Assembly: GCA_016187025.1 (NCBI GenBank)
Contig: JACPKM010000001.1
Span: forward strand, 43,188-107,187
Source of the DNA: Candidatus Daviesbacteria bacterium
Lineage (GTDB): Bacteria > Patescibacteriota > Microgenomatia > Daviesbacterales > UBA10151
Direction of reading: 5' to 3'
DNA: 64,000 nucleotides
The position numbers were made by a program, and so were the translations under genes. The notes under the pieces were generated by a model that worked only from the letters and a program-made list of their open reading frames with translations, did no database searches and was not told where the DNA came from. This document shows, one piece after another, positions 7,542-45,637 of the stretch (its first letter is position 1; every line of letters begins with the position of its first letter).

Positions 7542-8153
7542 TTAGGGATAGTAAAATCCGATATGTCCATCCTCCCCAATATGAAATCCTAGTCTAACCT
7601 TTGGTTCATACTTGGGATGTTTCTCCAAACCACATAAAGGAGAGAGTAAACCGTCATTTCCCCATAGACTTAAAACAGCCAGCCCTTCTTTAATTTCTTT
7701 GTAAACACCGGACGATGGCTTAGGAATACTACATTCATTACAAAAGCCCAGCATACGATCTACTCTCACTGCTTCTGACCTGCATGGCGTTAATCCCCCG
7801 CTGCATTCGGAATCATAAGAAATATCCCCCTGTGGGGATACTAAAGCAATCCAACCCGGCGGCGTAATATTTTGTATATTTTCAACCTGTCCTGCTCGCC
7901 AGCAATATATTCCACCACTTGTTCTATGAAAGTGTTGGGCTTGGATAAGTGCATGAACTTGGTAAACCAAAGGATTAAAACCTACCTCACAATCTCTACA
8001 CCAACCATCTGTCCTTCTTATAGGCGATATAAAAGTGGGGCTTTCTAATCTTGCTCTTATCGGGGCCCTTGAAAGACTTGAAGATTCTTTAGGATCAAGG
8101 AGGGCTAGCTGTTTAAAAAAAATTGGAGGCTTCTCTTGATCTAACAAATTCAT
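7542..8153 (-). CDS. hypothetical Cys-rich protein, co-transcribed downstream of the DNA ligase
   Basis: 203 aa with several Cys pairs (CRDCE, CNECS, CRSE, CGLE). No family recognised. Overlaps the ligase stop by 4 nt. Confidence 0.3.
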   Translation of the reverse strand: MNLLDQEKPPIFFKQLALLDPKESSSLSRAPIRARLESPTFISPIRRTDGWCRDCEVGFNPLVYQVHALIQAQHFHRTSGGIYCWRAGQVENIQNITPPGWIALVSPQGDISYDSECSGGLTPCRSEAVRVDRMLGFCNECSIPKPSSGVYKEIKEGLAVLSLWGNDGLLSPLCGLEKHPKYEPKVRLGFHIGEDGHIGFYYP

Positions 8154-9925
8154 TTTTTGTATTGCAGATGATACATCTCGACTAACTCTTTAACAGTAGT
8201 TACATCCTCAGGTTGTTTGTCAGCTTCACGGAATTTAACTAACCTGGGAAATCTTAAGGCGTATCCAGGCCCTGAGCCTATTTTGCCAGCTGTATGGACC
8301 GGAGATTTGGTAATTTCATCTGCTAACACCTCTATCACTATTTTCGGTTCCACCCAGACGCTAGGAGTAATTAATGAATTTACCCGTGCTGGTTTCCTTT
8401 GAACTTTGAACTTTGAACTTTGAACTTTGATTTCTCTCCATTCCTCATCGGTTAATCCTGTGCCAATTCTGGAAACTGTCACAAATTCATCTTTGTCTTT
8501 ATCATAAACTCCAACCAGTAATGCCCCTGCCCCAAACTCTGCCCTTTTCCCCCTGCCAAAAATATAACCTAAAATTACGCAATCAATAGTATCCTTAAGC
8601 TCACCTGCCGAGTGCCTCTTTAATTTCACCCAGTTAAAATTCCTGGCTCCTGCCTCATATTTTGAATCAGGTCTTTTGACAACCACTCCTTCCAAACCTT
8701 TGGTTAAGGCATCATTAAAAAGCTCATTTAACCTTTCTTCGTTGTCTACCACCTCTCCGGGCTGCGGAATTAATATTTCATCCCCCTGCAAAACCTTTTT
8801 TAGCTGTTCCATTCTTTCAATTAGCTCCAAGTCCATTAAGGGTTTTCCATCTAGATACATCACATCAAACACAAAAGCCTTTAAAGGCAGGCTCTTTGCC
8901 ATTTCTTCTATGCCATACTTTCTTCTTCTTTTTGTGGTTTCCTGAAAAGGTAAAAATTCTTCTGATTGGGGGTTAAAAGCTAAGGCTTCTGAGTCTAAAA
9001 TGGCTGTTTTGGCTTTAATCTGTTTAATTGTTCCTTCCACAATCTCCGGAAACATGGGAGTAGTTTCCTCTAAGTTTCTGGAAAAAAGCCTGACATTATT
9101 ACCGTCTTTGTGAATTTGCACTCGGAATCCATCATATTTATACTGAACATGAGCATTACCTTCAAACTTTTGCAGGACAGTCTTGGCATCCGGTAATCTT
9201 TCTGCCAACTGGGAGCGGATCGGCCGGCCCACTGTCACATCAAGCTTTTGCACCGCCTCCAACCCCCCACTCCATAAGGTTTCGCCGATCAATCCTAGAT
9301 CAGAAACTTTATTATATGCTCCTTCTAAAAGTTTCCTTTTGGACCTGTCTCCCAGTTTTAGTTTGGCAAAAGCATCCAGAACCGTGGGGTCCCCTATTCC
9401 AAGCCTCGAAACACCAAGTGGAATTCTTACTAAATGCTTTGCAGATATTGGATCAACTTTTTTTAATATATCTGCTAAGGTAGCGACCTTTTTTTCTACT
9501 GTTCCTTCACCGGAAGTTTTAGCAATCCCTGCCAAAGTTTCAAAAATTTCTTTTGTTTCCAATTTAAAAGTTTTAATTTTAAATTTTAAATTCAGCTGTT
9601 GGGCCACTAAACCCATATCTCCTAATTTGCCTAAAAGATTTAATACTTCCTCCTTATCAGCTTTATAAGCTCGACCAACAGCTGCTGCTACCAATTTTTC
9701 ACTCATCCCCATCTCAACAGGCTCGTAAAACGGGGCTACTCTTCCCTGAAGCAGATAACTCACCTTTGCTACCTCATGTTTTTCTACCTTAGAAAAAAGT
9801 TCTGAGAGGATGTCTATCAGGGAGAGTCTCGAGGAAGTAGTTTCTAACCTTTCAAAATAGTCCGCTAACTGCTTAAAAATCATCTCTTTTGGATTGTAGA
9901 TTAAACAAATTAATTTGACAAGCAA
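8150..9925 (-). CDS. lig: ATP-dependent DNA ligase (three-domain Lig1/archaeal type)
   Basis: Adenylation motif I KYDGFRVQIHK; 591 aa with DBD, NTase and OB domain order. Confidence 0.85.
   Translation of the reverse strand: MLVKLICLIYNPKEMIFKQLADYFERLETTSSRLSLIDILSELFSKVEKHEVAKVSYLLQGRVAPFYEPVEMGMSEKLVAAAVGRAYKADKEEVLNLLGKLGDMGLVAQQLNLKFKIKTFKLETKEIFETLAGIAKTSGEGTVEKKVATLADILKKVDPISAKHLVRIPLGVSRLGIGDPTVLDAFAKLKLGDRSKRKLLEGAYNKVSDLGLIGETLWSGGLEAVQKLDVTVGRPIRSQLAERLPDAKTVLQKFEGNAHVQYKYDGFRVQIHKDGNNVRLFSRNLEETTPMFPEIVEGTIKQIKAKTAILDSEALAFNPQSEEFLPFQETTKRRRKYGIEEMAKSLPLKAFVFDVMYLDGKPLMDLELIERMEQLKKVLQGDEILIPQPGEVVDNEERLNELFNDALTKGLEGVVVKRPDSKYEAGARNFNWVKLKRHSAGELKDTIDCVILGYIFGRGKRAEFGAGALLVGVYDKDKDEFVTVSRIGTGLTDEEWREIKVQSSKFKVQRKPARVNSLITPSVWVEPKIVIEVLADEITKSPVHTAGKIGSGPGYALRFPRLVKFREADKQPEDVTTVKELVEMYHLQYKK
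8398..8430. repeat. heptanucleotide tandem repeat (TTTGAAC) x 4.7 inside the ligase CDS
   Basis: tttgaactttgaactttgaactttgaactttga; three heptamers make 21 nt, so the protein carries SSKFKVQ repeats. Confidence 0.8.
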
Positions 9926-11103: not shown

Positions 11104-12180
11104 CTACTTTAAAACATATGTAGCTTTTTTGGTTCCACCTACTTTTTTAACCAACCCCTTTTGCTTTAAAAACTTCAGCTCCCGCAGGACTGTGTCATCT
11201 GAGTAGTCCGGAAAGATTTTCCTGAAATCTTTATTTTGCATACTCTTGTGCTTGTGTAAAAACTCAATAATGGACATCTGGCGCTCATTTAACTCAACTT
11301 GGCCTCCCAGCTGATCTTTTAGTGACACGTCAACAGATATTCGTTGCACTTTCTCCTTTACCCTATTTAGCTCAATTGCTACACCCTCAATAAAGTATTC
11401 AAGCCAAGGGGTGAGATCCCGTTCATGGGTATCTAAAACCAGCTGATTAGAAACAGCTTGTAAAGTCAGGTAATAGTTCATTGGATTTTCATCAAAATAC
11501 TCTTCAAAAGAGAAAAACTTTCTTATATCGTAGTTATCTAAAAACATCACTAAAGTAGCCACAGCCCTTGCTACCCTGCCATTACCATCGACAAACGGAT
11601 GAATCCTGGCAAGCTCGTAATGAATAATTCCTGCTTTAATAACGGGGTGAATCTCTTTTGTCTCATCTGTATTGATCCAATTAACCAAATCCTCTATCAA
11701 GTAAGGTACTTCCACTGCTGGAGGAGGTGTATAAGAAATTTGTCCGGTCTTGGTATTCCGGATTACTACTTGACGGAATCTGAATTTGCCCACCGCATCC
11801 TCGGGCAAAATCTTTTCTGTGGTAAGTTTGTGAATTTCCAGGATGGTTTCGATATTTAATATATACCTGCCACTTCTACCCAACTGCTCAGCAATTGTAT
11901 CAATAAACCTTAAAACATTCCGGTAATTGAGAATTTCCTGAATATCCCTATCTCTTGCCAGGATCTCTTGTCCATCCAACACTTCCCTCACCTCCTCTTG
12001 AGATAAGGGATTACCCTCCAAATGAGTTCCATGATGAATAAACCTTTCTGCTGCTTCTTTTCTGAATTTGGCTTCCCAAACAGGAATCAGAGGTGCGTTG
12101 ATAATTACCTCCCGAGAAGCATCAATCCTGCCGACATTTCTTAGAATATTGTTAGAAATTGTATATTTAGGTACAAACAT
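11104..12180 (-). CDS. Fic-family protein with a C-terminal wHTH
   Basis: Fic motif HPFVDGNGRVARA; C-terminal winged helix. Confidence 0.8.
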   Translation of the reverse strand: MFVPKYTISNNILRNVGRIDASREVIINAPLIPVWEAKFRKEAAERFIHHGTHLEGNPLSQEEVREVLDGQEILARDRDIQEILNYRNVLRFIDTIAEQLGRSGRYILNIETILEIHKLTTEKILPEDAVGKFRFRQVVIRNTKTGQISYTPPPAVEVPYLIEDLVNWINTDETKEIHPVIKAGIIHYELARIHPFVDGNGRVARAVATLVMFLDNYDIRKFFSFEEYFDENPMNYYLTLQAVSNQLVLDTHERDLTPWLEYFIEGVAIELNRVKEKVQRISVDVSLKDQLGGQVELNERQMSIIEFLHKHKSMQNKDFRKIFPDYSDDTVLRELKFLKQKGLVKKVGGTKKATYVLK

Positions 12181-12276: not shown

Positions 12277-15200
12277 CTAACATGCAACATACTCATCCCA
12301 GCATTTGATATTAAGCTCATCTGCCTTTTTGCAAGATATAGCTAAAATAAACTCTGTTGCAGATTGTAAATTAGTCAAAAGCGGCACTCCTGTATCAATA
12401 CACACCCTTCTTATCACATATCCATCCCGCTGATCAGAGGCAGACTCTCCAGGAATACTAATGTTGATAGCCAAATCTACCCGGTTGTTACTAACTAAAT
12501 CTATTGCCGAAGGCGATCTGCCCTCAGATATTTTAAACACTCTAGTATTTTTAATCCCATGATCTTTGAGAAGTTGCGAGGTATTTTTGGTAGCATAGAT
12601 TTTTAAATTTAGCTTTGAGATTTCTTGTGCTGCTTCCAAAAACTCCATCTTATTTTTATCTCCTCCTATCGAAACAAATACCCCCTTTTGAGGAATCTTT
12701 CCACCAGTTGACAATATTGCTTTAAGAAAAGCTTCATGTAGATCTTCTCCAAAACAGCCCACTTCCCCAGTAGACAACATCTCCACCCGAAGCTTTGGAT
12801 CGGCTCCTTTTATCCTATTAAAGGAAAACTGAGACGCTTTTACTCCTACATAGTCTAAATTTAAAGTATTAAAGACACAATCTAGCCTATTACCTAAAAT
12901 TGCCTCAACTGCAATCTCCACAAAGTTATTTTTGGTTACTTTTGACACAAATGGGAAAGACCTGGAAGCCCTTAAATTAAGCTCAATTACCATCACTTTA
13001 TTGTCTTTTGCCAAAAATTGAATATTAAATGGCCCGGTAATATCCAGAGCCTTTATTATGGCTCTGGCATCATTTTTAACCTGCCTTATTGTTTCTATAA
13101 AAAGCCTTTGAGGTGGTAAAACCAAGGTTGCATCTCCTGAATGAACTCCGGCATTTTCTATATGCTCAGAAATAGCATAAATCACCAGCTCCCCGTTACT
13201 GGCAACTCCATCAATTTCAATTTCTTTTGCATTTTCTATAAATTTTGATATAACAACAGGGTATTTAGGAGAAACTTGTGTAGCTTGTGTTAAATACCTT
13301 TTAAGCTCCGGTACAGAGTAAGCTACATTCATCGCGCTTCCTGATAAAACATATGAAGGCCTCACCATTACCGGAAAGCCAATTTTTTTGGAAAAAGCAT
13401 GTGCCACCTCTGAGTTTTTTAACTCCTGCCAAGCAGGTTGTGAAATATTTAAGCTATCCAGTAATTTACTAAACTTGTGTCTATTTTCTGCAATATCAAT
13501 ACTAACTGGATCTGTTCCCAGAATTGGAACTTTTTTCTCATATAAAGGAATTGCTAGATTATTAGGAATTTGTCCACCAAAGCTCAAAACTATTTTTCCT
13601 CCTTCCAAATCATAAATATCCAATACTCTTTCCAAGGTAAGCTCTTCAAAATAAAGCTTGTCTGCATTATCATAATCTGTTGAAACCGTTTCAGGATTAC
13701 AGTTTATGATTATTGTTTCCCAGCCCTTTTTCTTAAAAGAAAGTGCTGCTGTTACACAACACCAGTCAAACTCTACTGATGATCCAATCCTATACGGCCC
13801 AGAACCTAATACGATTACCTTCCTTCTTTCCCCCTTTCCACTTTCCCCTTGTTCTGACTCCTCTCCATGGTAAGTTAAATACAAATAATTAGTTTTAGCA
13901 GGATATTCAGCTGCCAGTGTATCGATGTGCTTAACCTTTGGTAAAATAGCCCACCCTTTTCTTAACTGCCTTATATCTTGTTCATCTTTCTTAAATACCT
14001 GAGCAATCAAATTATCTGAAAAACCTAATTTTTTTGCCTGAAGAAGATTATGCTTACTGAGCTTAAGTTTTTTTTCTTTTAATCTCTTTTCAAAATTAAC
14101 AATTTCCAAAAGCTGATAAAGATACCACCTATCAACACCTGTTTCATTATAAATTTCATCAACTGAGGTGCCTTTGGCCAGTTCTCCTGCTACCGAAAAA
14201 ATTCTTTGTGTATTTGGAGAAAGTAACTTCTTAGAAGAAACATTTATTTTTGATTTTCCACCAAGCAGGCCATCCTGACCATTTCCCAAAGATCTTATGG
14301 CTTTTTGTAAGCTTTCAGGAAAGCTTCTACCTATGGCCATTACCTCCCCCACGCTTTTCATCTCAGATCCAATGGTCTCTGATGCTCCAACAAATTTTTG
14401 TAAATCCCACTTTGGCACTTTTACCACAATATAGTCCAAGCTTGGCTCAAAAAAGGCTGAGGTTGATTTAGTGACACTGTTTTTCAACTCAGAGAGTGTA
14501 TACCCCAGGCCAATTTTGGCAGCAACATATGCCAAAGGATAACCAGTAGCTTTTGATGCAAGAGCTGAGGAGCGCGAAAGCCTGGCATTCACCTCAATCA
14601 CTCTGTATTCATTGCTTTGGGGATTTAGAGCAAACTGGATATTACACTCTCCCACAATCTTTAGCTGTTCAATTACTTTCAAAGATATCTGCCGTAACAG
14701 ATGATATTGGTAGTTGTTTAAAGTTTGCGAAGGTGCAACTACAATACTCTCCCCTGTATGTATTCCCAATGGATCCAAGTTTTCCATATTACAAACAGTA
14801 ATCTTGTTACCCTCGCCATCCCTGACTATTTCGTATTCAATTTCCTTCCAATGTTTTAAATATTCCTCAATTGCGACCTGAGGTGCATGTTTTAAGGCTT
14901 TAGAGACCACCTGAGTTAACTCTTTTTGGTTGTAAACAACAGCTGAGCCCAATCCTCCCAAAGAGTACCCGGATCTAACTAAAAGAGGAAATTGTAAATT
15001 CTTAATAACTTCTAAGACCTCGTTTAGACTACTGGCAAAACCGCCTTTGGGGATCAAAACACCAATTTTTTCCAACTCCATGGCAAAAAGTTTTCTATCT
15101 TCAGTAATTTCGATGGTTTTTGCTGCTGTTCCTAAAACTTTGACATGGTTTTTTTCCAAAATACCTGATTTTGCCAAACTTAAACCACAATTAAGGGCAG

Positions 15201-15471
15201 TCTGGCCACCAAATGACAAGAAGATCCCATCGGGTTTTTCTTTTTTGATTACTTTTTCCACAAAGAAAGGATTGACCGGCAAAAAATAAACCTTATCTGC
15301 CAAAGATTGAGAGGTTTGGATTGTGGCAATATTAGGATTTATCAAAACTGTTTCAACGCTTTCTTCTTTTAAGGCCTTTAGTGCCTGAGAACCAGAGTAA
15401 TCAAACTCTCCTGCCTCCCCTATTTTCAGGGCCCCCGAGCCCAATACCAGTACTTTCCTCAATTTATTCAT
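12277..15471 (-). CDS. carB: carbamoyl-phosphate synthase large subunit
   Basis: 1064 aa with duplicated ATP-grasp halves and an MGS-like C-terminus. It contains the GESGKGE motif described in the findings. Confidence 0.95.
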   Translation of the reverse strand: MNKLRKVLVLGSGALKIGEAGEFDYSGSQALKALKEESVETVLINPNIATIQTSQSLADKVYFLPVNPFFVEKVIKKEKPDGIFLSFGGQTALNCGLSLAKSGILEKNHVKVLGTAAKTIEITEDRKLFAMELEKIGVLIPKGGFASSLNEVLEVIKNLQFPLLVRSGYSLGGLGSAVVYNQKELTQVVSKALKHAPQVAIEEYLKHWKEIEYEIVRDGEGNKITVCNMENLDPLGIHTGESIVVAPSQTLNNYQYHLLRQISLKVIEQLKIVGECNIQFALNPQSNEYRVIEVNARLSRSSALASKATGYPLAYVAAKIGLGYTLSELKNSVTKSTSAFFEPSLDYIVVKVPKWDLQKFVGASETIGSEMKSVGEVMAIGRSFPESLQKAIRSLGNGQDGLLGGKSKINVSSKKLLSPNTQRIFSVAGELAKGTSVDEIYNETGVDRWYLYQLLEIVNFEKRLKEKKLKLSKHNLLQAKKLGFSDNLIAQVFKKDEQDIRQLRKGWAILPKVKHIDTLAAEYPAKTNYLYLTYHGEESEQGESGKGERRKVIVLGSGPYRIGSSVEFDWCCVTAALSFKKKGWETIIINCNPETVSTDYDNADKLYFEELTLERVLDIYDLEGGKIVLSFGGQIPNNLAIPLYEKKVPILGTDPVSIDIAENRHKFSKLLDSLNISQPAWQELKNSEVAHAFSKKIGFPVMVRPSYVLSGSAMNVAYSVPELKRYLTQATQVSPKYPVVISKFIENAKEIEIDGVASNGELVIYAISEHIENAGVHSGDATLVLPPQRLFIETIRQVKNDARAIIKALDITGPFNIQFLAKDNKVMVIELNLRASRSFPFVSKVTKNNFVEIAVEAILGNRLDCVFNTLNLDYVGVKASQFSFNRIKGADPKLRVEMLSTGEVGCFGEDLHEAFLKAILSTGGKIPQKGVFVSIGGDKNKMEFLEAAQEISKLNLKIYATKNTSQLLKDHGIKNTRVFKISEGRSPSAIDLVSNNRVDLAINISIPGESASDQRDGYVIRRVCIDTGVPLLTNLQSATEFILAISCKKADELNIKCWDEYVAC

Positions 15472-15498
15472 AATTTAATATAAAATTACTCTTAGCTG

Positions 15499-16542
15499 CT
15501 AAAGATAAGTTAAAAATTCATCAAACAAATATCCCCCATCAGTTGGACCTGGGCTTGCTTCAGGATGAAACTGAACTGATAAGAATGGTTTTTTGACATG
15601 TCTTACCCCTTCATTTGTGCCATCATTTAAGTTTATAAACCATTCTTGCCAATTATTCGAAAGAGTTTTGCTACTGATGGCAAAACCATGATTTTGAGAG
15701 GTGATAATAGCCTTTTTTGAAATCAAATCTTTAACTGGCTGATTTTGGCCTCTATGACCAAATTTCAATTTATAGGTATCAGCCCCAGCTGCTAGTCCCA
15801 AAAGCTGACTTCCTAAACATATACCAAAAGTAGGAACATTCTCATCAATTAATTGCCTGATTGTATCAATTGTCTCTTTGGCTTGCTTTGGGTCTCCCGG
15901 ACCATTAGAAATCATGACCCCATCAAAGTTTAAGTTGTTTTTTATAGGGTTAAAGTTCCAGGGAACTACTGTTATTTTAACTTTTCTTTTTAAAAAGCTT
16001 TTTATGATATTTGATTTGGCTCCACAATCTATCAAAATAATATGTTTTTTTCCTTCCCCAAATGTTTGCGGTTTATCTACACTGACAAAAGGCAATACAT
16101 TTTCTTTATTCGGATCATAACTTTCCCCCTTTCCGCTTTCCCCTGACTCAATTCTTCCCAGCATCACTCCCCTTTCCCTTAATTTTCTTACCAAAAATCT
16201 GGTGTCAATATTAAAAAGCCCAGGAATATTATCTTTTTTTAGCCAATCACTTAAAGTTTTTTGACTTTCAAAATGAGATGGGGTGTCAATATAATTTTGT
16301 ACAATTACTCCCTTAACCTGAATTTTTTTAGATTCCCAATACTTTGTATCTGGAATTCCATAATTTCCCACTAAAGGATAAGTTAAAACAAGAATCTGAC
16401 CATAATAAGAAGGGTCGGTCAGGCTTTCCACATAACCCACCATTCCTGTGTTAAAAACCACCTCTCCGGAAATGTTTGTGATAGCCCCAAAAAAATCACC
16501 TTCAAATGTGTTTTGATCTGCTAGTATTAATTTACCTTTCAT
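15499..16542 (-). CDS. carA: carbamoyl-phosphate synthase small subunit (glutamine amidotransferase)
   Basis: CarA N-domain followed by a class I GATase (GICLGSQ...HRG...NHG). Confidence 0.9.
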   Translation of the reverse strand: MKGKLILADQNTFEGDFFGAITNISGEVVFNTGMVGYVESLTDPSYYGQILVLTYPLVGNYGIPDTKYWESKKIQVKGVIVQNYIDTPSHFESQKTLSDWLKKDNIPGLFNIDTRFLVRKLRERGVMLGRIESGESGKGESYDPNKENVLPFVSVDKPQTFGEGKKHIILIDCGAKSNIIKSFLKRKVKITVVPWNFNPIKNNLNFDGVMISNGPGDPKQAKETIDTIRQLIDENVPTFGICLGSQLLGLAAGADTYKLKFGHRGQNQPVKDLISKKAIITSQNHGFAISSKTLSNNWQEWFINLNDGTNEGVRHVKKPFLSVQFHPEASPGPTDGGYLFDEFLTYL

Positions 16543-32002: not shown

Positions 32003-32386
32003 TTAATCCTCTTGAGGAAGATAGATATCTAAAACCCCAGCCCTACCTGCCATAAGCGATTTTAAAGAAACAGATATTTCGTATCCCTCATGCAGATCTA
32101 CTAAAACCACCTCTCCTTTTTTTACCGGTATCGCGCTCGCATTATCTACCTGATCACCTTCAAATGTTCTAATCTGCTTTATTCGATAAAATAGAGGCTC
32201 TGGATCAAGAAGAACTCCACTATGTTCTCTAGTTATATTAGCTTGCACCACTTCACCTGGCCTTGGACAAAATCTTTCCCGTAACCTTAGTGCACTGGGA
32301 TTTCGTACCTCAGGCAAAGACCGGTTATTTCCCTTTCTTTGTTCTGGGGAAATCCTATGTATTAGTTGTTCATAATCTGCAGTCAT
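32003..32386 (-). CDS. hypothetical protein
   Basis: 127 aa with an SD-like GGAAGGA upstream; no family recognised. Confidence 0.3.
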   Translation of the reverse strand: MTADYEQLIHRISPEQRKGNNRSLPEVRNPSALRLRERFCPRPGEVVQANITREHSGVLLDPEPLFYRIKQIRTFEGDQVDNASAIPVKKGEVVLVDLHEGYEISVSLKSLMAGRAGVLDIYLPQED

Positions 32387-32400
32387 ATTTTTCCTTCCAT

Positions 32401-32426
32401 AAAAAAACCGCCTGCTAAAGGCGGTT
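32401..32426 (-). terminator. intrinsic terminator hairpin plus U7, just before the start of the 32003..32386 gene
   Basis: Minus strand GGAACCGCC-UUUAGCA-GGCGGUUUUUUUAUGG. Confidence 0.4.
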
Positions 32427-32605: not shown

Positions 32606-33349
32606 TTACTTTAATCGACGGGGTAAAACTCCGTCATATTCTATTTCTTCATTTGGAACTCTTCTGAATGGTTTTTCGCGGACCCACTCTTCAAAGATAT
32701 GGGCAATGAGTCCCACCACCCTGCCGATTATGAAAAAACCCTTTCCCAGTCTATAATCAAAACCCATATCAGATACAACTGCTGCAATTGCCCCGTCTAC
32801 ATTGATAGGGATTTTTTTGCCTTTAAGTCTTTCCAGCTCTGCTTCAACTGCAACTGCCAATTCACAATGTTCACCAAAAAACCCAAGTGTTTTGGCTTTT
32901 TCAAAAACTTGCTTGGCTCTTGGGTCTTCTGTATATACTTTGTGTCCAAAACCGGGAATCCTATCTCCTGAGGATATCACCTTTTCCACCAATTTTGAGG
33001 CTGCAAGACCCATTTGTAAAAGATGCGCACACTCCTCAACCGCCCCGCCGTGATATTCCCCTATTCCTAAAACCCCGGCAGCCACAGCAGCCTGCATGGG
33101 ATTACCTGCTGAAGCAGAGTTTCTGGCGTTTGTCACAGAAGGCGGACCCATGCCGTTATCGATAGTGGAGATTAAAATGCTATCAAGCATTGCTCTTTCT
33201 TTTTCTGTCGGCAGCTCCCCTTTTAATTCCAGCCAGATAGCATCGGTAAAATTTACATTATCTATTAAATCAGTGATTTTGTAGCCGTGGATGTGTACTT
33301 CCCCATCCACAATCCCAGATATTGATGTCTTCCACTTTTTGTCAGACAT
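32606..33349 (-). CDS. citryl-CoA lyase-like protein (citrate synthase C-terminal-domain homolog)
   Basis: From MSDKKW: citrate-synthase catalytic region with GFGHKVY and the D...Vxxx motifs, but only about 247 aa because the CS N-terminal half is missing. The ORF-track start at 33454 is probably spurious. Confidence 0.55.
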   Translation of the reverse strand: MSDKKWKTSISGIVDGEVHIHGYKITDLIDNVNFTDAIWLELKGELPTEKERAMLDSILISTIDNGMGPPSVTNARNSASAGNPMQAAVAAGVLGIGEYHGGAVEECAHLLQMGLAASKLVEKVISSGDRIPGFGHKVYTEDPRAKQVFEKAKTLGFFGEHCELAVAVEAELERLKGKKIPINVDGAIAAVVSDMGFDYRLGKGFFIIGRVVGLIAHIFEEWVREKPFRRVPNEEIEYDGVLPRRLK

Positions 33350-33393
33350 AGTGACAGGTACAGTAAAGGTGACAAGTGACAAGAAATAAAAAT

Positions 33394-33417
33394 AACTTGT
33401 TACTTGTGCCTTGTTAC
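33394..33417. repeat. direct repeat A flanking the four-helix-bundle gene
   Basis: AACTTGTTACTTGTGCCTTGTTAC. Its partner, AACTTGTTACTTGTCACTTGTGCCTTAT, is at 33791-33818. An imperfect long hairpin, GGTGACAAGTGACAAG...CTTGTTACTTGT, lies at 33368-33408. Confidence 0.6.
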
Positions 33418-33420
33418 TAG

Positions 33421-33807
33421 TCACCCTCCTTTCTGAGAAATGTATAGCTTCCAAATTATATGACCTGTTTCAGCTCTTAGCAAGGAGATCTCTTGGAAGT
33501 CTCTATCTGCTACCAATTTTCTTTTATAAGCAAAGTCCAGTAAGTATTCTGTTTCCGCAAGAGAGCCTAACGCTATAGACAGAAACCTATGAAATTCTTT
33601 CTTACTATTCCTTGCGTGACCTTCAACTATATTCGTGGGAACCGATAAACACGCTCTTTGCAGTTGGGAGACTAAGCCAAATATCTCGTTCTTAGGAAAA
33701 GTAAGAGTTAAATCGTATACTTTGTGCACTAGTTCATCAGCTTTTTGCCATGCGATTAGCTTCTTGTAGCCGAACAACGAACTGTTTTCTAACTTGTTAC
33801 TTGTCAC
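33421..33807 (-). CDS. four-helix-bundle protein (23S rRNA intervening-sequence protein family)
   Basis: YKKLIAWQKA...SQLQRACLSVPTNIVEG...FLSIALGSLAETEYLL is typical of PF05635/TIGR02436. Confidence 0.7.
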   Translation of the reverse strand: MTSNKLENSSLFGYKKLIAWQKADELVHKVYDLTLTFPKNEIFGLVSQLQRACLSVPTNIVEGHARNSKKEFHRFLSIALGSLAETEYLLDFAYKRKLVADRDFQEISLLRAETGHIIWKLYISQKGG

Positions 33808-33818
33808 TTGTGCCTTAT
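33791..33818. repeat. direct repeat B flanking the four-helix-bundle gene
   Basis: AACTTGTTACTTGTCACTTGTGCCTTAT; partner of 33394-33417 with one extra CACTTGT heptamer. Confidence 0.6.
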
Positions 33819-34702
33819 CACCTTATCAGTACTGGTATCTCATCCGGAGTCTTGGCAATTTCCACTCCGGCCTCTTTTAAGCTATTAATTTTAGATTTAT
33901 AGCTGCCCTTTTCTCCGTAAACTATTGCCCCTGCATGCCCAAGTTTTGTGCCTTGAGGTAAGTTTTCGGCAAATAGTCCAGAAATAAACGCCACCACTTT
34001 TTTAGTAAACCCTCCACTTTTTATTAATTCTGCTGCTTCTTCCTCATAAGTCCCACCAATTTCTCCAAAGATTACAACAGCTTTTGTTTGTTCATCTTTT
34101 TCAAATTCTTTTAACAAATCTACAAAGGTTGAACCTACTAATATATCCCCGCCAATTCCCACAACGGTCGACTGGCCAATACCGTTTTTTGTTAGAATCC
34201 ATGATACTTCTGAGGCCATCCCTCCTGATTTGGAGATTACTCCAACAGATCCCTTCGAATAAACTCCCCTCGGATCATCACCCCCTATTGAGCCTACTTT
34301 ACCAATACCCGGAGAAATAATACCGATAGATGACGGACCAACCATTTTAACCCCATTTTGCTTGGCTAAAGCAATTGCTTTTGCACTATCTTGAACAGGA
34401 ATATGTTCTGTTAAAACATTTATTAAAGGAATTTTGTTTTTTATGGCTTCTTCCATGGCCCCAAATGCAGCAAAATTTGGGACAGCTATGAAAGAGGTAG
34501 TAATCCCCGGGTGATTTTCTAATGCCTCTGTAATAGAGTTATAAACAGGTACCCCATGCACTTCCTGTCCCCCTTTACCAGGAGTCACACCAGCCAACAC
34601 TTTAGTACCGTAATTTCGCATCTGCAAAGCCACCTTGGACCCTTCTTTGCCTGTTATGCCCTGTATTAAAACTTTAGTTTTATCAGTAACTAGTATTGCC
34701 AT
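33818..34702 (-). CDS. succinyl-CoA synthetase alpha-like / citryl-CoA synthetase small subunit-like (CoA-binding)
   Basis: SucD-type CoA-binding and ligase-CoA domains (VLIQGITGKEGS...; GHAGAIV). Confidence 0.8.
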   Translation of the reverse strand: MAILVTDKTKVLIQGITGKEGSKVALQMRNYGTKVLAGVTPGKGGQEVHGVPVYNSITEALENHPGITTSFIAVPNFAAFGAMEEAIKNKIPLINVLTEHIPVQDSAKAIALAKQNGVKMVGPSSIGIISPGIGKVGSIGGDDPRGVYSKGSVGVISKSGGMASEVSWILTKNGIGQSTVVGIGGDILVGSTFVDLLKEFEKDEQTKAVVIFGEIGGTYEEEAAELIKSGGFTKKVVAFISGLFAENLPQGTKLGHAGAIVYGEKGSYKSKINSLKEAGVEIAKTPDEIPVLIR

Positions 34703-35858
34703 AAGCTAGATCCACCATTGTTTTTGCTGTAGCTGTCATTGGGGTTTCCCGCCCATATATATGAAAATCAAAACCTTCTTTTTCTCCAATCTCTTTTAAA
34801 GCCTCAAAGGCTTCCTTATCCCTTGGCCCTCCCCTCCTGATTACAATTGGATAATTTGGTTTAGGACTCAGTTCCCTTAAACCTTCTACAAATCCCATCA
34901 GGGTTTCAAAAATATCCGTAAAGTTGGCTGTCCCCCCTACAAACCAGCAGCCCTTTAAGTTAGGTTTAGAAAGTACTATTTTTGTTAATCTTTCTAGTTT
35001 CTCTCTGGGAGGATTTCCTGAGTGTTCAGTATAGTTTGCGCTCTTGCCGCCATATGCTACAAGCGCATCCATATTCACAATAGATCCTCCCCCTCCTGCT
35101 GCAATCACTGCAATATCTCCCTCCAAATCCCAATAAACAGAGCCTGCAGTACCACGGTGATCCCCTTCATCTATTTTCCGGGCTTCAATTTCTGCCTCAG
35201 TTGGAGCCCTGCCAAACAAATTCCTTTCAGGAAATTTAATCTCGCGTCTAAAATCAGCATCATCATCCAAAATTATTTTGGCGTCCAACGCCATAATATA
35301 ATTTTGCCCTGAGCGAGCGGAGCGAGTCGAAGGGTTCTTAGCGACTACCAACGGATTAATTTCTGCCAGTTCACAGTCATATTTGGTAAAAACTTCCCAA
35401 AGTTTTTTTGCTGTGCCTTTCAACTCCTCAGGAACATTTTCTCCTAAATATCCCTTTAAGATATCGACCTGGAAAGTTTTCACCTCTTTACCCTCTACTC
35501 CTGTACCTCCTTCACCAAAATTCAAAACCGGTCCTCTTGATTCTGTGGAATAAGAGAATGACAAGTAGTATTCCCTATCATAATCTACCATCTCCTCTAC
35601 TAAAACCTTATCTACTTTTTCTCCATTAACAATCCTGCCAAACAGTTTTTCTACTTCCCCCTTCACGCTTTCCCCTTCACCCTTAACTGTAACTATTCCA
35701 CCTACATCTGCACGCTTACCGGACAAAACCTGGACTTTTAAAACACAGGGTCCTTTAATAGTAACTTCTTCATCCGCCAAAGTTACTAGCTGTGACTGAG
35801 GAACATTTATTCCACAATTTTTAAAAAGTTGTTTTCCTTCAAATTCGTATAAGATCAC
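34683..35858 (-). CDS. succinyl-CoA synthetase beta-like / citryl-CoA synthetase large subunit-like (ATP-grasp)
   Basis: N-terminus MILYEFEGKQLFKNCGINVP resembles SucC/AclB ATP-grasp proteins. It carries the GEGESVKGE motif. Confidence 0.75.
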   Translation of the reverse strand: MILYEFEGKQLFKNCGINVPQSQLVTLADEEVTIKGPCVLKVQVLSGKRADVGGIVTVKGEGESVKGEVEKLFGRIVNGEKVDKVLVEEMVDYDREYYLSFSYSTESRGPVLNFGEGGTGVEGKEVKTFQVDILKGYLGENVPEELKGTAKKLWEVFTKYDCELAEINPLVVAKNPSTRSARSGQNYIMALDAKIILDDDADFRREIKFPERNLFGRAPTEAEIEARKIDEGDHRGTAGSVYWDLEGDIAVIAAGGGGSIVNMDALVAYGGKSANYTEHSGNPPREKLERLTKIVLSKPNLKGCWFVGGTANFTDIFETLMGFVEGLRELSPKPNYPIVIRRGGPRDKEAFEALKEIGEKEGFDFHIYGRETPMTATAKTMVDLAYGNTSY

Positions 35859-36022: not shown

Positions 36023-36052
36023 TTATCAGTGCGGGTAAATTTTAACATAATT

Positions 36053-36553
36053 TAGGCTGCATATCTAAGGCCATCAATCCACCCTCTAATCTTAGTTAAT
36101 AATTCGCTACTTCTTCGAACCCTTATCCTCAGGACCCCATAGTATTTTTCTGGATTTTCATATTTTTTCAACCAAATAGATTTGTGATAAAAAGGTTTTT
36201 CAAACTGTTCTTTTGGAATTTTTGTGGTTTTCGACCAAAAATCTTCAATTTGTTCTTTACGATACTCATGTGATTCATTAAATTCAGCTCTTAAAATTAA
36301 TTCTTCCCGTTTTATATCAAAAGACCTTGCGAGTCACTTAATAAAAAATTTCACCATCTGGGGATCAGAGTTGCAGAAACCTACTCTACCCTCCTTCAAA
36401 CTCTTAAACCCTTCTGCCCAATAAAGAGATAAACCTGTCAAAAATAGTTCTTTCTCAGTCAGACGAGCTATTTCCAACTTTGCCTTTTTAAAGACAGTAT
36501 TGGTTCTAGTAACTTTCTCCAGATGCTTCTGCTTCGCTAATTTCCGGAGGTGT
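36053..36553 (-). pseudogene. degraded ORF (frameshifted, no start codon) between two tRNA genes
   Basis: Minus-strand conceptual translation ...LEIARLTEKELFLTGLSLYWAEGFKSLKEGRVGFCNSDPQMVKFFIK* then, after a 1-nt shift, LARSFDIKREELILRAEFNESHEYRKEQIEDFW...GWIDGLRYAA*. Possibly a mobile-element (homing-endonuclease-like) ORF remnant. Confidence 0.3.
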
Positions 36554-36748
36554 TTTATATTTACTTTCCTATCTTTTTAAGACTTCTGCCTTTTTTTTCT
36601 TTGCCTTACTGCTTCTTCGTATTCTATTTGCTTTCTCTTCATTGATTAATAGATATATTTCTATTGTTCATCTATTTAATAGAAGATGTCAATCGTGTTT
36701 GACATCTCTTGGTTAGAAGAATAAAATACAAGAGTTCTTTTACATAAC

Positions 36749-37038
36749 GCGGGGAAGTGTAACGGCTGCACGCGAGGCTCGATTTTGGGCTCTCTCATAA
36801 GCAATTATGCTAGATAACCTGGCTCATAACGGTGGAAACTTCTTCAAAAGTAATACCGTGGGAAGTTTCGATAATATCGGAACCCCGTAACGACTAATAT
36901 TCCAGCTACCGGATAACTCGGAACTAAATTGGAATTATACGCCGGGCTCCTCTGATTAGGGGATGATGGTATAGTCTATTCTTTATTTAACTAAAGAGCA
37001 TAATCTCGCAGTAGTAGGTTCGACTCCTACCCCCGCAA
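36749..37038 (+). tRNA. tRNA(CAU) split by a putative group I intron of about 218 nt in the anticodon loop (exons 36749-36780 and 36999-37038)
   Basis: Exon 1 is CGCGGGG-AA-GTGT-AACGGCT-GCAC-G-CGAGG-CT. Exon 2 is CATAA-TCTCG-CAGTA-GTAGG-TTCGACT-CCTAC-CCCCGCA-A. Joined, they form a canonical cloverleaf with C1-A72 as in initiator tRNA. The 5' exon ends in U and the intron ends in G; the intron contains ACGACUAA, which is P7-like. Confidence 0.5.
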
Positions 37039-37195
37039 CACGGTTGTATTTTGTGCATATAAAGCATGCAGTTGGGCTACTATATAGCCCTTTTCGTTAG
37101 GTTCGAACGCCTTTCCTATTATTGGCGCACCAGCCTTCATGTTTTTAACAATTTTAATGTGAGGATGAGACTGTAAACCCAATTTTTTACCCTTT

Positions 37196-37543: not shown

Positions 37544-38605
37544 ATGGTTAAAAATCGCAAGTTTGAAAAGAGGATAACTCAACTTCCTCCTGAAATATTT
37601 CTTAAAATAGCTCAGATCGATGAGTTAAAAGGTCAATGGACTGCAGGAGCTAATCTAAACCCCCAACTGTTAGGCAGGCTTAAAAGGTCAGTTTTAATTA
37701 CCTCTACTGGTGCTTCTACAAGAATTGAGGGCTCAAGACTTACTGACGACGACGTTGACAAATTAATGCAAGGTATTGCTATCCAAAAGTTTGCTGATAG
37801 GGATAAACAGGAAGTTCAAGGCTATTTTGAACTCCTCAAAATAATTTTTGATTCCTGGGAACATATTATATTTAGTGAAAATTCCATTAAGCACCTACAT
37901 CAGGAGCTCTTAAAGTATGTGGAAAAGGACCAGGATCACAGAGGTAAATATAAATCACAAGATAATAAGGTTGAAATGGTAGATGAGCAAGGTAGAAGAA
38001 TTGGAGTTATCTTTGACACTACTCCGGCCTACTTAACCCCTAAACAGATGCAGGAGTTAGTTGAATGGACTAAATATGCTTTGGAGGCTAAATTGTCTCA
38101 TCCCCTCATTATCGTAGGCAACTTTTTAGTAGAATACTTAAATATTCACCCATTTAAAGACGGAAATGGTAGACTTTCCAGAATTCTAACTAACCTGCTT
38201 TTACTTCAGTCGGGTTATCTATACATGCCTTATATATCTCACGAGAAGTTAGTTGAGGATCAAAAACCACAATACTATCTTGCATTAAGAAAAAGCCAAA
38301 GAACTTTCAAAAAAGGTGCTGGAGATATAGCTCCCTGGCTTGAGTTCTTTCTAGATATAATTTTAGCCCAATCGAAAGAAGCAATAAGTTTAATGGCTGG
38401 AGAGAATGTAGAGGATATTTTATCTAATAAACAAATTGCAGTCTGGCAATACCTACAAAAGAAAGCTGAATCTACACCTAAGGAAATAGCAAAGGAAACT
38501 AAAGTCGCTTATGCAACTGTGCGCCAAACACTCTCAAAACTACTGGATCTAAAGAAAATTGAGAGAGTCGGAATGGGCAGAAGTTCCCGTTATAGGAAAA
38601 TCTAA
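37544..38605 (+). CDS. Fic-family protein with a C-terminal wHTH
   Basis: Fic motif HPFKDGNGRLSR. Confidence 0.8.
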   Translation: MVKNRKFEKRITQLPPEIFLKIAQIDELKGQWTAGANLNPQLLGRLKRSVLITSTGASTRIEGSRLTDDDVDKLMQGIAIQKFADRDKQEVQGYFELLKIIFDSWEHIIFSENSIKHLHQELLKYVEKDQDHRGKYKSQDNKVEMVDEQGRRIGVIFDTTPAYLTPKQMQELVEWTKYALEAKLSHPLIIVGNFLVEYLNIHPFKDGNGRLSRILTNLLLLQSGYLYMPYISHEKLVEDQKPQYYLALRKSQRTFKKGAGDIAPWLEFFLDIILAQSKEAISLMAGENVEDILSNKQIAVWQYLQKKAESTPKEIAKETKVAYATVRQTLSKLLDLKKIERVGMGRSSRYRKI

Positions 38606-45558: not shown

Positions 45559-45637
45559 TTGGTGAGCGGACCAGGACTCGAACCTGGAACCGGATGGATA
45601 TAAGCCATCTGCTCTGCCATTGAGCTATCCGCCCTTG
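45559..45637 (-). tRNA. tRNA-Ile (anticodon TAT/UAU) with an encoded CCA
   Basis: GGGCGGA-TA-GCTC-AATGGCA-GAGC-A-GATGG-CTTATAT-CCATC-CGGTT-CCAGG-TTCGAGT-CCTGG-TCCGCTC-A-CCA. Confidence 0.8.

Follow-up and report, generated by a model that had tools for sequence, protein, structure and literature searches.

What does an operon do that appears to combine the two subunits of a succinyl-CoA synthetase with a short piece of citrate synthase, in the reduced genome of a bacterium with hardly any trace of a tricarboxylic acid (TCA) cycle around it? The question is raised by a minus-strand locus (positions 32606–35858) in a 64,000-nucleotide stretch of contig JACPKM010000001.1 of a Candidatus Daviesbacteria bacterium (assembly GCA_016187025.1), hereafter called the window. 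An earlier reading of the letters without database searches (the sequence-only reading) had proposed ATP-dependent cleavage of citrate in two steps, by a citryl-coenzyme A (CoA) synthetase (CCS) and a citryl-CoA lyase (CCL) or else by a split ATP-citrate lyase (ACL), rather than a plain succinyl-CoA synthetase (SCS, subunits SucC and SucD). With a probability of about 0.7, we consider that the products of the operon are two enzymes that together cleave citrate at the expense of ATP, as in Hydrogenobacter (CCS/CCL). The CCS/CCL type is not new, and the lyase is already named citryl-CoA lyase at NCBI.

The 391-aa protein is the ATP-grasp, SucC-like protein described before (Pfam ATP-grasp_2, PF08442, E=2e-22), and it also matches the ATP-citrate-lyase domain Citrate_bind (PF16114, E=1e-26; 93.8 bits for a cut-off of 26.8). 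Its first-ranked PDB match is the large subunit of the citryl-CoA synthetase of Hydrogenobacter thermophilus (6hxq_B, E=5e-55), followed by Chlorobium ACL beta (6hxj_A, 9e-39), Methanothrix ACLY (2e-27) and Thermus SucC (7e-22); the corresponding bit scores are 190 for CCS, 137 for ACL and 81 for SCS. It stays far under the cut-offs of the NCBI SucC models (139.4 bits versus 375.55, and 137 versus 370). The protein carries HSG281, AN312-F-T314 and IR341-R342-GGP, of which G281, N312, T314 and R342 align with G309, N346, T348 and R379 of human ACLY (3mwd_A alignment; motifs YSG, ANFT and VRRGGP). In human ACLY these four residues are the citrate contacts. At the citrate-site positions the Thermus SucC has G, G-I-T and R-V. 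In a comparison of 118 sequences, G/N/[FN]/T/R/R is the signature of exactly one group, which contains the query, H. thermophilus CcsA and every ACL reference; the SucC and SucC-like groups have different residues there. The citrate-site and catalytic residues are invariant or near-invariant in a 29-sequence family alignment.

A profile-free search of 1.84 billion cluster representatives gave only 141 proteins at E<=1e-30, and the full-length ones were combined with five PDB references in a neighbour-joining (NJ) tree. The query groups with other Daviesbacteria (bootstrap 100/100) inside a CCS plus ACL superclade that is separated from SucC with a bootstrap of 88/100. PDB ranking, SucC models, citrate-site residues and tree all place the large subunit outside bona fide SucC. 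An AlphaFold2 model of the protein (predicted local distance difference test score 91.9) has 6hxq_B as its top Foldseek match; since the template-modelling scores are alike for CCS, SCS and ACL chains (0.65–0.77), the fold supports membership of the superfamily only and does not discriminate within it.

The second protein that carries the assignment is the 247-aa lyase. It had been described as a stand-alone C-terminal domain of citrate synthase with the motif GFGHKVY, which is indeed the case: Citrate_synt of Pfam (E=5e-38) covers only profile positions 164–353 of 357, and the motif lies at residues 133–139. The protein passes the NCBIfam citryl-CoA lyase models NF004869 (306.5 bits, cut-off 212) and NF004866 (251 bits, cut-off 245), and reaches 55–90 bits on citrate synthase models that have cut-offs of 330–590. 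It aligns end to end with H. thermophilus CCL (6hxp_A, residues 3–252 of 268; E=1e-76, 51% identity over 241 residues), to be compared with 3e-22 for the best full-length citrate synthase and 7e-16 for the ACL lyase module. The motifs HGGA (His100), GFGHKVY (His136), NVDG (Asp185) and IGR210 match those of 6hxp_A, and the lyase keeps the predicted catalytic His/His/Asp of the citrate-synthase fold (His100, His136, Asp185).

That the lyase gene could be a truncated pseudogene of a full-length citrate synthase is contradicted by the passed model NF004869, by the identity with 6hxp_A and by its conservation. The lyase is 82–94% identical over more than 100 Daviesbacteria clusters and is more conserved than the large subunit, for which more than 120 90%-identity clusters were found at 62–80% identity, nearly all labelled Daviesbacteria or Microgenomates. 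Each of the proteins has more than 120 Daviesbacteria clusters. An 80%-identical relative locus (L001) was used for comparison. The rates of nonsynonymous (pN) and synonymous (pS) differences were measured against four orthologous loci. For the lyase alone, pN is 0.05–0.10 and pS 0.64–0.78, and for the three genes together pN is 0.05–0.14 and pS 0.59–0.78, i.e. near saturation. With pN this low and pS nearly saturated, all three genes are kept by selection; ccsA, ccsB and ccl are under strong purifying selection.

The locus survey covered one genome per GTDB species. A relative is encoded by 539 loci, and the best 80 of these 539 were analysed. Their hosts are Daviesbacteria, Woesebacteria, Woykebacteria, Curtissbacteria, Giovannonibacteria, unnamed Patescibacteria and a few metagenome-assembled genomes (MAGs) labelled DPANN. 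The order ccsA-ccsB-ccl is colinear on one strand in 78 of the 80 loci, the two exceptions lying at contig ends or being short of one match. The split ATP-citrate lyase that had been offered as an alternative is not borne out, and ACL in fused or split form was rejected, because the lyase gene is separate from the CoA-binding gene in all 78 colinear loci. That the Candidate Phyla Radiation (CPR) and DPANN have CCS/CCL homologues is noted in a single sentence of a preprint from 2022, and work on vent DPANN listed CCS/CCL in a few MAGs (PMC8091004). In our literature searches we came across no study of CCS/CCL in Daviesbacteria, and none that assigns it a role in CPR. The operon described here thus adds a well-supported case to a known enzyme system, in a lineage where that system had been mentioned only in passing.

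Some host labels deserve caution. Locus L051 (DASVHF010000076.1) is labelled 'Candidatus Nanoarchaeia archaeon', and beside its operon lie ORFs (open reading frames) that cluster with proteins read by eye as bacterial MraZ, RsmH and FtsL-like. These neighbours resemble those of Woykebacteria loci (L045 was grouped with this observation), so the archaeal label probably stems from a mistake in binning or classification. The title 'uncultured Gammaproteobacteria', given to many CPR-like contigs (binchicken MAGs), is clearly a placeholder.

The 294-aa protein is, as had been noted, a SucD-like CoA-binding protein (CoA_binding, E=6e-23; Ligase_CoA, E=3e-17), with a phosphohistidine motif GHAGA at His256. 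Homology to solved structures of CCS, ACL and SCS suggests that the large subunit would bind ATP in its ATP-grasp half and phosphorylate this histidine. The phosphohistidine loop would then swing to the citrate site that the large subunit is predicted to form with its C-terminal domain (G281, N312, T314, R342). There citryl-phosphate would form and be attacked by CoA held on the small subunit, with release of citryl-CoA. The separate lyase, with His100, His136 and Asp185, would perform a retro-Claisen cleavage to acetyl-CoA and oxaloacetate. The gene found between those for the small subunit and the lyase would be a selfish insertion.

This inserted gene corrects the earlier description of the locus as three consecutive minus-strand genes. 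Positions and sizes agree with the ORF calls; 'consecutive' does not hold, as a four-helix-bundle gene lies between ccsB and ccl, giving four minus-strand ORFs in the order ATP-grasp, SucD-like, four-helix-bundle and lyase (Table 1). The ccsA start codon is a GTG at 35858, preceded by AGGGAAGG, and the ccsB ATG (34702) overlaps the ccsA stop by 20 nt. The lyase starts with an ATG at 33349, and an exact-sequence look-up gave an NCBI protein identical to our 247-aa model. A tRNA-Met gene lies about 90 nt upstream of the operon. About 180 nt past ccl, direct reading of the sequence revealed a hairpin (stem AACCGCC / GGCGGTT, 7-nt loop) followed by a T-run, which was not flagged by the consensus scanner. 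Since the promoter and terminator counts of the consensus scan were not above those of shuffled sequence, no promoter is claimed and the terminator rests on the eye reading.

Table 1. Features of the citrate-cleavage locus and its borders, in window coordinates.
Feature	Positions	Strand	Size or family	NCBI protein and product name
ccsA-like gene, predicted citryl-CoA synthetase large (beta-type) subunit	34683..35858	-	391 aa	MBI2600394.1, 'acetate--CoA ligase family protein'
ccsB-like gene, predicted small (alpha-type) CoA-binding subunit with phosphohistidine loop	33818..34702	-	294 aa	MBI2600393.1, 'CoA-binding protein'
33-nt direct repeat, upstream copy	33790..33822	.	repeat family D1	
Four-helix-bundle protein gene (23S rRNA intervening-sequence protein family)	33421..33807	-	128-aa ORF	MBI2600392.1, 'four helix bundle protein'
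33-nt direct repeat, downstream copy	33393..33425	.	repeat family D1	
ccl gene, predicted citryl-CoA lyase	32606..33349	-	247 aa	MBI2600391.1, 'citryl-CoA lyase'
Possible intrinsic terminator at operon end	32401..32426	-	read by eye, low confidence	

The four-helix-bundle protein (118 aa in the NCBI model) belongs to PF05635 (23S_rRNA_IVP, E=7e-34) and TIGR02436 (E=1e-31). Its gene is bracketed by the two direct repeats, which a repeat search found to be 82% identical; the upstream copy overlaps the ccsB stop and the downstream copy the stop of the four-helix-bundle gene itself. Within the window the motif AAGGCACAAGTRACAAGT is restricted to the repeat copies, with 0 occurrences expected by chance. 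The insert is on the same strand as the operon, and the ccsB and ccl reading frames are intact. In relatives, the family is found between ccsA and ccsB (L001/L003) or between ccsB and ccl (L014, L018, L028, L029), and most of the 80 loci are without it in the operon. Gene and repeats look like a small mobile or recombined cassette, and the gene is probably a selfish passenger outside the enzymology.

Other small cassettes, mostly co-oriented and named by eye, are present at the junctions in L004, L006, L013-L016, L021, L023-L025 and L028. They comprise a BrnT/BrnA-like toxin-antitoxin pair, a pair of 77-aa and 115-aa proteins with a DTG aspartic-protease-like motif, and GIY-YIG proteins. At the L004 junction a reverse transcriptase lies beside an Avd-like four-helix protein, a possible diversity-generating retroelement. 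With such varied inserts at the same junctions, the operon spacers are evidently permissive landing sites. Just downstream of the operon lies a 127-aa ORF (32003-32386, minus strand) that matched nothing in Pfam or NCBIfam and is without a counterpart in any of the 80 related loci.

If the enzymes cleave citrate, what is the product for? The impression of little TCA content in the window is confirmed by a Pfam survey of 40 other ORFs, nearly all of those above 180 aa among them, in which no further TCA enzyme was detected. These ORFs encode carbamoyl-phosphate synthase, class I aldolase, IspH, polyprenyl synthase, DNA polymerase I, ATP-dependent DNA ligase, FtsH, tryptophanyl-tRNA synthetase (TrpRS), glycosyltransferases, two-component regulators, two Fic proteins, MazF toxin and an integrase. 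No TCA gene was found either in the 6-10 kb flanks of the 80 related loci. Moreover, according to PMC8407418, CPR genomes 'contain few if any TCA cycle genes', and autotrophy by a reductive cycle is therefore unlikely. The earlier judgement of the operon as notable in such surroundings is weakened by the fact that the system is common in Microgenomates and partly annotated.

All ORFs of the 80 loci were clustered to search for recurring neighbours. Malate dehydrogenase, PEP (phosphoenolpyruvate) carboxykinase, acetate kinase and citrate transporter do not recur beside the operon. Those that recur are GlmU or its left-handed beta-helix part (LbH), TrpRS, Nramp, FtsH, a XerC/D-like integrase, DivIC and small selfish genes, GlmU/LbH being the sole metabolic partner among them. 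This upstream partner of about 430 aa aligns over its whole length with archaeal-type GlmU (TIGR03992, 247 bits), and its best PDB matches are structures of Sulfolobus tokodaii ST0452 (5z09, 2ggo). About 36 of the 80 loci (L012, L014, L018, L027, L033, L034, L036, L037, L045, L047, L051, L056, L079 and about 23 more) have a GlmU-like or LbH gene upstream of the operon and on its strand, and in 13 it abuts or overlaps ccsA. In Woykebacteria-type loci only about 220 aa are present, the C-terminal LbH acetyltransferase half, and its gene directly overlaps the start of ccsA. In L020 the gene order appears to be tRNA-Met, GlmU-like gene, ccsA, so the GlmU-like gene seems to have been lost from this position in the window.

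The LbH acetyltransferase half of GlmU and of ST0452 uses acetyl-CoA. Its presence upstream of the operon suggests that CCS/CCL may supply acetyl-CoA from scavenged citrate, for the N-acetylation of amino sugars, rather than serve carbon fixation. A wider proposal, which we consider tentative and for now rather doubtful, is that in Microgenomates-type CPR, and possibly some DPANN, CCS/CCL could be a stand-alone module coupled to LbH proteins of the GlmU type that turns citrate from the host or the environment into the acetyl donor for envelope amino sugars. If this were true, citrate would be a key host-to-episymbiont currency in cells without a TCA cycle and perhaps without other routes to acetyl-CoA. 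As to the second product of the lyase, it may be mentioned that both subunits of carbamoyl-phosphate synthase, large and small, are encoded at 12277-16542 (minus strand) in this reduced genome. Aspartate, derived from oxaloacetate, is the co-substrate of the next pyrimidine step and could be one possible sink.

Several points weigh against the proposed system or its role. The small subunit is nearer to archaeal SucD (2yv2, Aeropyrum, 298 bits, 5e-88) than to Hydrogenobacter CcsB (6hxq_A, 215 bits, 9e-63); several further SucD rank above CcsB, and AclA follows at 4e-52. It nevertheless remains under the cut-offs of the NCBI SucD models (295.2 bits versus 353.2, and 294.5 versus 336). It thus looks generically SucD-like and is neutral between CCS and SucCD; the claim of CCS/CCL rather than SucCD stands for the large subunit and the lyase (models, residues and PDB ranks). 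The large subunit is just 41.5% identical to the characterised CcsA, and the branching order within the CCS/ACL superclade is weak (38/100 in the NJ tree for everything but Aquificae). A second NJ tree puts the CPR/DPANN clade beside ACL-beta with Hydrogenobacter CcsA outside, an order that would be unwise to lean on. The GlmU/LbH gene is absent from the window itself, where tRNA-Met abuts ccsA, and the case for acetyl-CoA supply rests on the relatives. Finally, the overall reaction is near equilibrium, and the sequence does not fix its direction in vivo.

This last point opens the way to a reading in which the same enzymes run in reverse, making citrate from acetyl-CoA and oxaloacetate and storing the energy of the thioester in ATP, in the manner of a 'citrate synthase' that yields ATP. 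An ATP-citrate lyase was reportedly described in such a reverse, ATP-yielding role in Desulfobacter postgatei by Moller et al. in 1987. Substrate-level phosphorylation would be of value to a fermentative organism, the Pfam survey of the window showed no canonical citrate synthase, and the near-equilibrium of the overall reaction would allow it (a preprint gives about -6 kJ/mol for citryl-CoA synthesis). However, CPR are reported to be without citrate-using enzymes and none is found in the window, and the conserved upstream partner in relatives consumes acetyl-CoA and does not produce it. We regard the reverse direction as rather unlikely. We also think it unlikely that the pair forms and cleaves another acyl-CoA, derived from an acid other than citrate, for example 2-methylcitrate, malate, citramalate or a different hydroxy-acid. 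The CPR/DPANN clade forms its own group, distant from characterised CCS at the identity given above, and the citrate synthase fold also takes 2-methylcitrate, judging from NCBI family names. Such a substrate is at odds with the retention of all four ACLY citrate-contact positions and of the catalytic His/His/Asp and Arg of the fold, and with the model scores: the malate--CoA ligase model gives 86 bits for a cut-off of 604, whereas the CCL model is passed.

Carbon fixation by a complete reductive TCA cycle, of which the operon would be the citrate-cleaving step in an autotroph, is the only role of CCS/CCL established by experiment, in Aquificae. It is nonetheless very improbable here: beyond the lack of any other TCA gene in the window and in the flanks of the 80 loci, where 2-oxoglutarate:ferredoxin oxidoreductase, fumarate reductase, aconitase and isocitrate dehydrogenase are all missing, the small genomes of CPR are reported to be without the cycle, and a preprint surveying CCS/CCL notes that few such taxa have the full cycle. 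An ordinary SucCD beside a decaying fragment of citrate synthase is just as improbable. Sequences of this type have been deposited as SCS or CS (citrate synthase), and the best solved relatives of the small subunit are indeed SucD. But the large subunit fails the SucC models (139 versus 375 bits), has Citrate_bind and an ACL-type site and branches outside SucC, and the lyase is full length with respect to solved CCL, highly conserved and under purifying selection. SucCD with a pseudogene was rejected on curated cut-offs, site residues, NJ tree and pN/pS. Cleavage of citrate by CCS and CCL is the explanation that we favour.

CCS/CCL is usually taken as a marker of the reductive TCA cycle, known from Aquificae and Leptospirillum. 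Here it is intact and under strong purifying selection, and its operon is preserved in hundreds of ultra-small CPR (and DPANN-labelled) genomes from which the cycle is presumed to be missing. Surveys of marker genes can thus miscount such genomes, either as carbon fixers or as carriers of 'gltA' and 'sucCD', and the product names given to the two synthetase subunits (Table 1) hide the pathway in public annotation. If the supply of acetyl-CoA were its true role, the operon would reveal a concrete metabolic dependency of episymbionts on host citrate. In its sequence features the clade stands between Aquificae CCS and fused ACL, which bears on the origin of ACL and of citrate synthase. The interesting question is why symbionts with reduced genomes and no TCA cycle preserve a module for citrate cleavage with such fidelity.

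Other features of the window can be mentioned. Beside the tRNA-Met gene, two short ORF fragments (36052-36477, minus strand) match by eye pieces of a 231-aa protein with a LAGLIDADG-like 'LTGLALYWAEGF' motif that is intact in 7 related loci; they look like a frameshifted pseudogene of a homing-endonuclease-like protein. At 36770-36997 on the plus strand, within 36721-37041, there is a weak full-length match to the group I intron model (RF00028, E=4e-4; 26 bits, with a gathering score of 50). It lies in 1.5 kb of DNA with few ORFs, and the 320 nt around it share 73% identity with an intergenic region of L001. A tRNA-Ile with anticodon TAT (UAU) is present at 45560-45634 (minus strand); most bacteria read AUA by a lysidine-modified CAU tRNA. 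The ATP-dependent DNA ligase at 8150-9925 (minus strand) has three domains (DNA_ligase_A_N, _M and _C), an architecture of archaeal/eukaryotic type that is encoded here by a bacterium. The two Fic-domain proteins are encoded at 11104-12180 (minus strand, 358 aa) and 37544-38605 (plus strand, 353 aa), the latter with a C-terminal winged-helix domain.

How does the system compare with those already known? SucC and SucD share fold and phosphohistidine mechanism with the two synthetase-like proteins, and SucD provides the top PDB matches of the small subunit. The acid site of SucC is GGIT...R[LMV], in contrast to GNFT...RR in the large subunit of the window; both subunits are under the NCBI cut-offs for SucCD, and genes of the window type are always linked to a lyase gene. 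Citrate synthase shares with the lyase the fold region and the catalytic His/His/Asp, and the lyase is about 130 residues shorter. Prokaryotic ACL (Chlorobium limicola AclB/AclA, 6hxj; Methanothrix ACLY, 6hxi) performs the same overall chemistry with homologous modules; its citrate-binding loop, ANFT ... RRGGP, is identical in type to that of the window, and the CPR/DPANN clade lies near ACL-beta by NJ. In ACL, however, the CoA-binding subunit and the lyase are fused in a chain of about 600 aa and citryl-CoA is not released, whereas in the window they are separate genes with another gene in between. The H. thermophilus system (CcsA/CcsB and Ccl; 6hxq, 6hxp) differs in several respects. CcsA has A-N-N-T where the window protein has an ACL-like A-N-F-T loop, CcsB is 353 aa long with respect to the 294 aa of the SucD-like small subunit, and the host considered here is a probably non-autotrophic, reduced-genome CPR bacterium without a visible TCA cycle, in which a four-helix-bundle gene interrupts the operon. 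Nevertheless, it is this system that, like that of the window, consists of three separate polypeptides with the same domain content, has the same citrate-site and catalytic residues, and is the best solved relative of both the large subunit and the lyase.

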